DNA from: a virus
Strand: one strand, 5' to 3'
IMG/VR virus record: IMGVR_UViG_3300024433_002526
Length of the DNA stretch: 22,737 bases
Within the stretch, counting starts at the first letter, position 1, and each line of letters starts with the position of its first letter. Positions 3,241 to 3,961 of the stretch are shown piece after piece. The translations under genes were made by a program, and so were the position numbers. The notes beneath the pieces were generated by a model. It searched no databases, was not told the origin of the DNA, and saw nothing but the letters and a program-made list of their open reading frames with translations.

Positions 3241-3609
3241 TTATGAACGGCGTCCGAGGGCCGCCAGCTTCGACAACCCCCGGTCCACCTTCGGCGCGAC
3301 AGGAGCCTTCTCAGAAACAAGCTCCTGTGCAATCTTCTTCTCGACCGGTGACTCGTTCGCCTTGGCACTGAGCGCCAGCGCGTACATAAGGTTCCTGTGC
3401 GCATCGAGTGCTTTGAGACAGTGCTCAGGGAACTGGTTCTCCAAGAGCAACAGTCTCAAATGGTCCTCGGTCTGGGCAGTATCCAGCTTCGACCGGAACG
3501 CCACCACGCCACGCAGAGCTTCCCGCAGATGCGTGGCGATCGCCTTGATGTCAGACCCCAGCAGGGGCTGTTTGTTTCGCTGCCTCTTGTCTCTCGACCT
3601 CTTTGACAC
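3241..3609 (-). CDS. Hypothetical protein (122 aa). Basic N-terminus, alpha-helical composition.
   Basis: ORF on the array strand with TAA stop at 3243..3241. The start is uncertain: the annotated ATG overlaps the upstream gene by 59 nt. Confidence 0.4.
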   Translation of the reverse strand: MSKRSRDKRQRNKQPLLGSDIKAIATHLREALRGVVAFRSKLDTAQTEDHLRLLLLENQFPEHCLKALDAHRNLMYALALSAKANESPVEKKIAQELVSEKAPVAPKVDRGLSKLAALGRRS

Positions 3610-3961
3610 TGCCGTCCCCTTTGGTCATCTCGGGAACACCGTAGTTCCCTTTTTGCCGATCATGCAGCTCGGCCTTCTTCGAGCCGTTCCAGTTGTGCAT
3701 CTGCGAGTAGTACCCGACTATGCGGGTCATGTGCGACATGATGCGCGGTTGCCGCTTGCCAGTCAACACAGCCTGCAGATCGTCCCAGCTGTGCTCGCCG
3801 ATCGCAGAGATGGACACCGCGTAGTGGCCTGGCTGCCACGACCCATGTCCATCATGCGAGATCAGTACTACGTCATCAGTTGAGTTCACTCCCTGCCTGA
3901 CACCCCTCCACGTGAGGTGCGCGTGCTCCTGTACACGTCTGTAGAATTCACGCCCGTCCAT
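3551..3961 (-). CDS. Small protein (~136 aa from MDGREF...) carrying an NrdD-type glycyl-radical C-terminal motif TRIVGYYSQMHNWNGSKKAELHDR. Possible stand-alone glycyl-radical (spare-part-like) domain.
   Basis: The motif R-[IV]-x-G-Y-x6-WN-G-K-x2-E-x3-R matches my recollection of the anaerobic ribonucleotide reductase C-terminal glycyl-radical loop (RVCGYLG...FNAGKQEE). I verified the Gly codon at 3715..3713 by hand. The ORF track's longer 177-aa version overlaps the upstream gene by 137 nt, so I take the internal Met at 3961. Confidence 0.35.
   Translation of the reverse strand: MDGREFYRRVQEHAHLTWRGVRQGVNSTDDVVLISHDGHGSWQPGHYAVSISAIGEHSWDDLQAVLTGKRQPRIMSHMTRIVGYYSQMHNWNGSKKAELHDRQKGNYGVPEMTKGDGSVKEVERQEAAKQTAPAGV

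Follow-up and report, generated by a model that had tools for sequence, protein, structure and literature searches.

We analyzed a 22,737-nucleotide stretch of viral DNA (IMG/VR record IMGVR_UViG_3300024433_002526), hereafter called the window, and found that a small gene at positions 3551 to 3961 on the minus strand encodes a 136-amino-acid (aa) protein that is a member of a large unannotated family, in which a novel N-terminal domain of about 70 aa is joined to the glycyl-radical loop of the class III ribonucleotide reductase (RNR) NrdD. Comparison with its relatives in bacteria and phages suggests that the small protein is probably an autonomous glycyl-radical module that acts in trans on class III RNR. 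With somewhat less assurance, we favor the broader view that class III RNR has a two-polypeptide form and that the same family serves as a disposable radical cartridge that re-arms O2-cleaved NrdD in anaerobes and their phages. A preliminary description of the window had noticed the NrdD-like loop in this open reading frame (ORF) and had offered either a spare part resembling GrcA/YfiD or a remnant of a fragmented nrdD as its origin; an obligately split class III RNR is a reading beyond what that description offered.

The arrangement that bears most directly on this reading is found in a bacterial metagenome-assembled genome (MAG) at locus L095, where nrdG is followed by a 783-aa nrdD and, after a gap of 73 nt, by the gene for a 101-aa family member. 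The L095 NrdD ends in …CGVCGSQNVPGVSWIEEIKG immediately before its stop codon, 6 to 9 aa past the second CxxC of the zinc ribbon. It covers positions 1 to 554 of the 581 in the NrdD profile TIGR02487, whereas the window protein covers positions 551 to 580, and because these ranges adjoin, the two proteins are complementary. This NrdD lacking the radical glycine (Gly-less NrdD) belongs to a clade of at least 16 clusters (P0166 to P0179, P0190, and P0191) that are 65 to 78% identical to the L095 enzyme over aligned regions and that come from independent sources, namely NCBI MAGs (Elusimicrobiota and "bacterium"), JGI, ENA, and Logan, with one phage among them; inteins are present in three of the clusters. 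The Gly-less enzymes all stop 4 to 9 residues past the conserved V-x-G behind the zinc ribbon, and their tails (e.g., GVSQVE, GVRVIEE, and GIVVI) look like a degenerate first hairpin strand (GITRIV) that stops near the position of the radical glycine. Relatives of the clade at 61% identity are full length and have the loop (...VYGITRIVGYFSR..NWNKSK). Because the catalytic and zinc-ribbon residues are invariant in Gly-less and full-length NrdDs alike, the Gly-less enzymes are not pseudogenes.

The small gene lies directly downstream of nrdD(ΔGly) in four of the five chromosomal loci (L095, L165, L166, and JGI 3300075153). On the 200-kb contig L165, which has housekeeping neighbors, the order is nrdG-nrdD(ΔGly)-small gene (102 aa), and in Elusimicrobiota GCA_043820025.1 (L166) it is nrdR-glutaredoxin-like-radical S-adenosylmethionine (SAM) gene (nrdG)-nrdD(ΔGly)-small gene (98 aa)-dcd-IMPDH, which is repeated in JGI 3300075153. 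NrdG was confirmed in L095 and L165 by TIGR02495 (178 and 187 bits versus a cutoff of 131). The full window-type profile aligned with the small proteins of L095, L165, and L166 from end to end (E = 4e-30 to 4e-27), and a profile restricted to the N-terminal domain (window-type aa 1 to 74) matched them at E = 5.8e-9 (L095), 2.1e-5 (L165), and 2.3e-8 (L166). Because both domains match, we place these operon subunits in the same family as the window protein. The pairing extends to viruses, as phage L025 (an 81-kb viral contig) carries a small gene 5 kb from a Gly-less, intein-bearing NrdD of 1625 aa that ends in "…CENCNSGDVEGIEYYQ" before its stop codon. Phage L006 encodes a small protein 54% identical to that of the window, with an NrdG2 activase (148.6 bits versus a cutoff of 131) 8 kb away. 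A Gly-less barrel with all of its catalytic residues, encoded between an activase and a small protein that has the glycine loop, is most simply explained by a radical site supplied in trans, and the Gly-less lineages amount to a natural experiment in which the loop must arrive from elsewhere.

Two further features of these NrdDs were observed. Clade members often contain one or two inteins and reach 1017 to 1625 aa, as in the viral L025:14902-19779 and L040:5345-10099 and in P0190, P0191, P0204, and P0206. Extra C-terminal cysteine pairs (…FSCEC, …YHCEC, …KCISCK, and …NCIKC) occur in the Gly-less P0169, P0172, P0178, P0179, P0190, and P0191 and recall the C-terminal redox-shuttle pairs of class I and II RNRs.

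Within the window, the small gene is complete, its stop codon at 3551 to 3553 included, as read from the ORF list and the sequence. The 136-aa reading (MDGREFYRR...SHMTRIVGYYSQMHNWNGSKKAELHDRQKGNYGV...) begins at an ATG at 3961, which we favor over an upstream GTG at 4084 because every homologue begins at MDGREFY. The peptide quoted in the preliminary description, TRIVGYYSQMHNWNGSKKAELHDR, corresponds to residues 79 to 102. Gly124, which that description had named as the radical residue, follows the numbering of the GTG-started ORF (3551 to 4084) and is corrected here to Gly83, whose GGG codon lies at 3713 to 3715 (minus strand) and which corresponds to the conserved glycine of the RxxGY motif in NrdD profiles. 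The N-terminal domain (aa 1 to 74; 3740 to 3961, minus) has a predicted alpha-beta-beta-beta-alpha-alpha order and no NrdD counterpart; neither it nor the rest of the 136-aa protein contains a cysteine. AlphaFold2, run on a 134-sequence alignment, modeled aa 1 to 70 with a predicted local distance difference test (pLDDT) score of 90 to 98, and a significant match to this predicted fold was not found in the PDB. The loop module (aa 75 to 110; 3632 to 3739, minus), which is homologous to the extreme C terminus of NrdD, forms in the model a beta-hairpin (78 to 81/84 to 87) followed by a helix (93 to 104), with Gly83, the predicted radical-bearing residue, at the hairpin tip and a pLDDT of 84 to 91. 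The remaining tail (aa 111 to 136; 3554 to 3631, minus) is variable, with a pLDDT of 57 to 62 and neither length nor sequence conserved in the alignment, and the start of the next gene (3241 to 3609) overlaps it.

Profile searches bear out the loop. Pfam NRDD (PF13597) matched aa 71 to 104 at profile positions 531 to 561 of 562 (E = 4.9e-6, 25.9 bits), and TIGR02487 matched aa 75 to 104 (E = 2.9e-6, 26.1 bits versus a cutoff of 326). Alignment of the family against NrdD (hhalign) gave a probability of 98.4% and an E value of 4e-15, was limited to aa 75 to 114, and left the first 74 residues unmatched. The loop is identical to the C termini of full-length NrdDs at 22 to 24 of 32 residues (69 to 75%); the closest of these belong to a clade whose members come mainly from Planctomycetota, Elusimicrobia, and related MAGs, and the phage NrdD L040 is also among the closest. 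Every position of the conserved R-I-V-G-Y-Y-S ... W-N-x-S-K ... E-L-x-D-R-x-K-G-x-Y is present in the window protein, and these positions are 86 to 100% conserved in an alignment of 166 family sequences at ≤50% identity. Scans of Pfam and NCBIfam at E ≤ 1 returned NrdD models only, with no match to Gly_radical (PF01228) or to a GrcA model; the PHROGs and intein models gave no match to the small protein, and the family profile matched among PDB sequences only the loop of the Prevotella copri NrdD 8P23 (E = 0.08). The absence of a catalytic barrel noted in the preliminary description was also confirmed, as a six-frame hmmsearch of the window with an NrdD-body profile found no match at E < 10, neither a barrel nor fragments, and an NrdG profile searched in the same way found no match. 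As regards NrdD membership, the protein has the loop (RxxGY ... NxxxK..E...R) and has neither the whole-protein score, the barrel, nor the four-cysteine zinc ribbon (CxxC...CxxC) that full-length and Gly-less NrdDs both carry, and its 136 aa contrast with the roughly 600 to 800 aa of NrdD.

A word-indexed search returned 17 close homologues, all of 103 to 153 aa, and the family profile, searched against 1.84 billion cluster representatives (clusters defined at 50% identity), matched 859 clusters at E ≤ 1e-3, of which 568 reached E ≤ 1e-10. Of the 859, the 150 top-ranked all measure 92 to 225 aa, and nearly all of these are matched from their first residues to about position 100 to 113 of the 116-position profile. 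Across the 166 aligned sequences, the radical Gly83 is kept in 99% and Y84 and R102 in 100%, while R80, S94, K95, E98, G105, and Y107 are conserved in 97 to 99% and the N-terminal M1, F6, W59, and R70 in 90 to 96%. We collected 78 loci around relatives in viral contigs and 80 in species-representative genomes and classified the ORF bearing the motif in each. A small ORF was present in 73 viral and 58 genomic loci, and a full-length NrdD (~800 aa) in 22, with a C terminus (…CxxCxSxxVYGITRIVGYYSRxxNWNKSKxGELxDRxKGNY) nearly identical to the small-protein loop. L152 and L132 were excluded as small ORFs, being a frameshifted NrdD and a contig-truncated NrdD, respectively. The family is distributed among anammox and other Planctomycetota, Elusimicrobiota, and a few other anaerobe-type MAG lineages, together with their phages; a tblastn search of 50,697 GenBank phage records gave no match to the small protein.

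Stand-alone copies of the gene are also found beside stress genes in bacteria. The anammox genera Brocadia and Jettenia carry small genes in addition to a full-length NrdD, and the MAG MHYY01 carries a small gene (L154) together with a complete nrdD-nrdG pair (L158). The family members of Brocadia sapporoensis (WP_070066661.1) and of the 4.4-Mb Kuenenia stuttgartiensis chromosome (Q1PZP4/KsCSTR_06960) are annotated "hypothetical protein." GroEL-Hsp20-Lon lies upstream of the small gene in 11 to 17 Scalindua-type loci, the L089/L094 group shows the order Rrf2 regulator-small gene-desulfoferrodoxin (superoxide reductase), and in Kuenenia-type loci a universal stress protein (Usp) gene and an AmmeMemoRadiSam radical SAM gene adjoin the small gene. 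A radical SAM gene of TIGR04337 (357 bits) is convergent with the small gene in L148:10931-11941, L139:11104-12114, L157, L153, L154, and L120, loci of Kuenenia, Loosdrechtia, and related Planctomycetota, and a TIGR04337 gene also lies behind nrdG in two full-length nrdD loci (L163:11361-12347 and L099:12333-13322); a link between the PflA-like AmmeMemoRadiSam enzyme and class III RNR is possible. Directly downstream of the small gene, Scalindua-type loci (L136:10479-13797 and 20 others) encode a fused BcrAD/BadFG ATPase + HGD-D protein and a second HGD-D protein, a pair that constitutes a 2-hydroxyacyl-CoA-dehydratase-like radical enzyme system.

Oxygen cuts glycyl radical enzymes irreversibly at the radical glycine. 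We propose that an NrdG-type radical SAM activase would abstract a hydrogen atom from Gly83, after which the activated small protein would dock, via its N-terminal domain, on an NrdD without a usable radical loop. The hairpin would then enter the barrel opposite the finger-loop cysteine and start thiyl-radical chemistry, restoring ribonucleotide reduction. The N-terminal domain probably docks on NrdD, recognizes the activase, or both. The acceptor could be a genetically Gly-less NrdD, to which the small protein would contribute the radical as the obligatory partner in a split RNR, or a full-length NrdD that has lost its loop to O2 cleavage at the glycine, for which the small protein would be a replaceable spare part. 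Because the cleavage product is essentially a Gly-less NrdD, a small protein able to arm the latter should also re-arm the former. In the window phage, the most likely role would be to supply the host enzyme with fresh radical modules, much as T4 Y06I does for the pyruvate formate-lyase of its host, and in this way to keep class III RNR working and sustain deoxyribonucleoside triphosphates (dNTPs) during infection. For this support or repair of the host enzyme by the window copy our confidence is tentative and falls slightly short of even.

Several points weigh against a module acting in trans. The whole case is comparative, drawn from sequences; in full-length acceptors a trans module would face competition from the intact cis loop; at L167, another locus with a Gly-less NrdD, no small gene adjoins it; and the single-sequence Pfam NRDD score is 0.3 bits under the gathering score of 26.2. 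The window and ~35 kb of near-identical contigs (including L183 to L186) contain neither nrdD nor nrdG, an outward walk along the phage genome that gained ~12 kb likewise found neither, and among the 73 viral loci (~1 Mb) nrdD lies within 10 kb only in L025 and nrdG only in L006. The preliminary description had regarded the lack both of a glycyl-radical profile match and of an nrdD/nrdG partner anywhere in the genome as grounds for abandoning its proposal; a profile match (NRDD) does exist, and no partner occurs in the ~35 kb around the gene. This absence does not settle the matter, since a T4-like phage such as this one probably has a much larger genome and since the partner could be encoded by the host. 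In 71 of the 73 viral loci both genes are missing within 10 kb, which suggests that host enzymes serve as partners for many of the phage copies.

The small protein could instead be the obligatory subunit of a split RNR belonging to the phage itself, with a Gly-less NrdD, and perhaps NrdG, encoded elsewhere in its genome. This variant of a trans-acting module has a direct precedent in phage L025 and a partial one in L006, with its NrdG2. The window portal protein shares only 22 to 24% identity with its counterparts in T4-like and jumbo phage isolates, whose genomes measure 140 to 385 kb, so the window phage genome is probably >100 kb and mostly unseen, which leaves room for a phage-encoded partner. 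Against it, besides the missing neighbors described above, only the L025 lineage is Gly-less among the 10 viral NrdD loci of this clade identified in IMG/VR, and when IMG/VR NrdD contigs were cross-matched with small-gene contigs in a non-exhaustive scan with two peptide patterns, only the L025 contig carried both. We consider a phage-encoded Gly-less partner rather unlikely, and less likely than support or repair of the host enzyme. The nearest genomic small homologues lie on Planctomycetota MAG contigs (L085 and L086), which makes a Planctomycetota host plausible.

Other explanations do not involve a productive radical subunit of RNR. As a decoy or inhibitor, the free loop would sequester NrdG or block the NrdD barrel, down-regulating host class III RNR, or would act as a radical sink. 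A loop 69 to 75% identical to NrdD C termini should indeed bind the same activase, and mimics are common among phage genes, but bacterial operons pair the family with NrdDs that are unable to work alone, an inhibitor would need neither the 99%-conserved glycine nor the whole post-glycine helix, and a DNA phage with a replication module of its own would suffer from a reduced dNTP supply; this role is improbable. We regard as equally improbable that the small protein carries a radical for another enzyme or activase, either as the substrate of an AmmeMemoRadiSam-type radical SAM enzyme or as the cofactor of an unrelated barrel enzyme. In loci of the Kuenenia and Loosdrechtia type, ~0.7 to 1 kb separates the TIGR04337 gene from the small gene, and its family follows nrdG in L163 and L099, but the linkage is lineage-restricted (6 loci) with the genes convergent rather than co-oriented, the loop is specifically NrdD-like, and the nrdG-nrdD(ΔGly)-small gene operons provide a direct partner.

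Inteins occur in the clade NrdDs and in a window ATPase, and both inteins and "fractured genes" are known from the RNR genes of phages, so the small protein might be one half of a split intein, the C-terminal one, and attach the glycyl loop to a truncated NrdD by trans-splicing. However, NrdD tails past the split point are 4 to 9 aa long with no conserved Cys/Ser nucleophile, the residue before T/S-R-I-V is M, I, L, or V (Met before T79 in the window) and never the terminal Asn, no intein model matches, and the N-terminal domain has a fold without a significant match to solved structures, all of which makes splicing very improbable. Least probable is that the gene is nonfunctional and left over from an nrdD that has degraded or fragmented, or that the motif arose by chance. 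Although the likeness to NrdD spans ~30 residues only and the single-sequence Pfam score falls marginally under threshold, the family comprises 859 clusters, the best 150 of which are all small and aligned almost end to end, the N-terminal domain shows conservation and has a high-confidence fold in the AlphaFold2 model, NrdD fragments are absent from all six frames of the window and from the related contigs searched, and the gene is intact and syntenic in at least six independent contigs. With an intact family and a 99%-conserved glycine, we rejected the remnant origin that the preliminary description had offered. A reading that invoked an intron or read-through was also considered and rejected. 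Taken together, the decoy, other-enzyme, split-intein, and remnant readings account for a minor share of the probability.

A trans-acting glycyl-radical module has well-described parallels. Activated NrdD is known to be cut by O2 at its radical glycine (G681 in E. coli and G580 in T4). O2-cleaved pyruvate formate-lyase (PFL) is rescued by GrcA/YfiD and by T4 Y06I, with overlap of a strand that the cut enzyme keeps (PMC8683613, PMC13450708). According to a June 2026 review, formate lyases alone have identified spare parts, and whether other glycyl radical enzymes have them is still to be established (PMC13450708); a 2021 paper likewise leaves open the spare parts of other glycyl radical enzymes (PMC8683613). 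Like GrcA/YfiD and Y06I, the window protein is small and stand-alone (about 100 to 140 aa), ends in a copy of a large enzyme's glycyl-radical loop, has an N-terminal extension without a counterpart in that enzyme, and would be expected to be activated by the enzyme's own radical SAM activase. The module also overlaps a short strand retained by the truncated enzyme, as in YfiD and cleaved PFL, and Y06I is a phage-encoded precedent, the bacterial copies of the new family being tied to stress genes. The families are nevertheless not homologous, since the new loop derives from NrdD, on the other deep branch of glycyl radical enzymes, and has no Gly_radical match. The likeness to GrcA/YfiD proposed in the preliminary description is thus upheld by comparative genomics as a function and not as homology, there being no PFL-type match. 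The N-terminal region of YfiD is disordered, whereas that of the new family is predicted to be folded; the target of GrcA/YfiD is PFL, whereas that of the new family would be RNR; and GrcA/YfiD is a spare, whereas the new protein would be obligatory where the target enzyme has lost its own loop. We know of no PFL that has lost its own loop altogether.

Comparison with RNRs and with other glycyl radical enzyme subunits further sets the family apart. With NrdD (T4, E. coli, T. maritima, and P. copri 8P23) it shares the last 30 to 40 residues, xTRIVGYYSx3NWNxSKxxELxDRxKGxY, including the radical glycine, whereas the ATP-cone, ten-stranded barrel, finger-loop cysteine, and four-cysteine zinc ribbon are absent and an unrelated 70-aa domain stands in their place. 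The split class II RNR of Pseudomonas aeruginosa (NrdJa/NrdJb) likewise has a C-terminal module on a separate polypeptide encoded directly downstream of the barrel subunit, but that split removes a Cys-rich zinc-finger region that shuttles reductant, whereas here the radical residue itself has moved. BssB and BssC of benzylsuccinate synthase and HpdC of 4-hydroxyphenylacetate decarboxylase are also small proteins that bind a glycyl radical enzyme and affect access to or stability of the radical domain, but they lack the radical glycine, whereas the new small protein would be the radical carrier. In a literature search we found no class III RNR split with the radical residue on another polypeptide, no split NrdD, no spare part for RNR, and no account of the Kuenenia and Brocadia accessions; most subscription journals lay outside that search, so a prior description is possible.

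If the proposed role is correct, a spare-part system would for the first time be known for a glycyl radical enzyme besides PFL, and the phage copies would make up a new class of auxiliary metabolic gene that protects anaerobic dNTP synthesis from oxygen. Anaerobic RNR makes the DNA precursors of strict anaerobes, and the family of small proteins is a testable spare-part candidate for that enzyme; such a system would explain DNA synthesis in oxygen-exposed anaerobes, e.g., the anammox bacteria of oxygen-minimum zones. It would also give a name to about 860 "hypothetical protein" clusters, including K. stuttgartiensis Q1PZP4, and a minimal substrate of about 100 aa for studies of NrdG activation.

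The window genes are all on the minus strand and phage-like, and they include a family-A DNA polymerase, a UvsX/RecA-like recombinase, a flap endonuclease, SbcCD-like nuclease subunits, an intein-bearing P-loop ATPase, a T4-type portal, an HU-like protein, and a PDDEXK nuclease. The last of these lies upstream of the small gene and co-directional with it (3948 to 4703, minus) and is of the PDDEXK_15 type (Pfam PF24608, E = 1.1e-10; PHROG 244, RusA-like); it had been described as an Hjc resolvase, an identification that is not specifically supported. Its stop and the ATG of the small gene overlap by 14 nt, an arrangement compatible with co-transcription or translational coupling, and the gene order is repeated in L179 to L182; we regard the nuclease gene as context and not as a functional partner. 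An identical or 98%-identical small gene, intact and syntenic, occurs on at least six independent contigs (L007, L008, and L179 to L182), and copies in this phage lineage differ by 3 to 4 codons (A48T, T79S, and H100R), too few for a ratio of nonsynonymous to synonymous substitution (dN/dS).

Several other genes of these phages were unusual. Three genes downstream of the small gene, a major-vault-protein (MVP)-like gene (2 to 2476, minus) is cut at the left end of the window and is full length (895 aa) in L180:11558-14245; its protein matches Pfam MVP_shoulder (E = 1e-17) and Vault repeat (E = 3.6e-5), which is unusual for a phage. The P-loop ATPase (8119 to 11136, minus; 1005 aa), with PHROG matches to terminase-large, DnaB-like, and primase proteins, contains at aa 150 to 487 a LAGLIDADG-type insertion of ~338 aa that is present in L179, L181, and L182 and exactly absent from the collinear 657-aa homologue L180:3873-5846, which looks like an intein presence/absence polymorphism between near-identical phages. 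In the window phage and in jumbo phages with the small gene, an N-terminal uracil-DNA-glycosylase-like domain is fused to DNA polymerase A (PF03167 + PF00476; L184:2628-5363, L001:1642-4572, and L003:1564-4461). The 208-kb jumbo phage L003, which carries a small-gene homologue, also encodes a nicotinamide adenine dinucleotide (NAD) salvage set of NAPRTase, an isochorismatase-family nicotinamidase, and NAD synthase (L003:15951-18498). Downstream in the window phage lineage, a PAPS-reductase/DndC-like gene (L180:17294-18307; NCBIfam DndC, E = 9e-8) may modify DNA or nucleotides.

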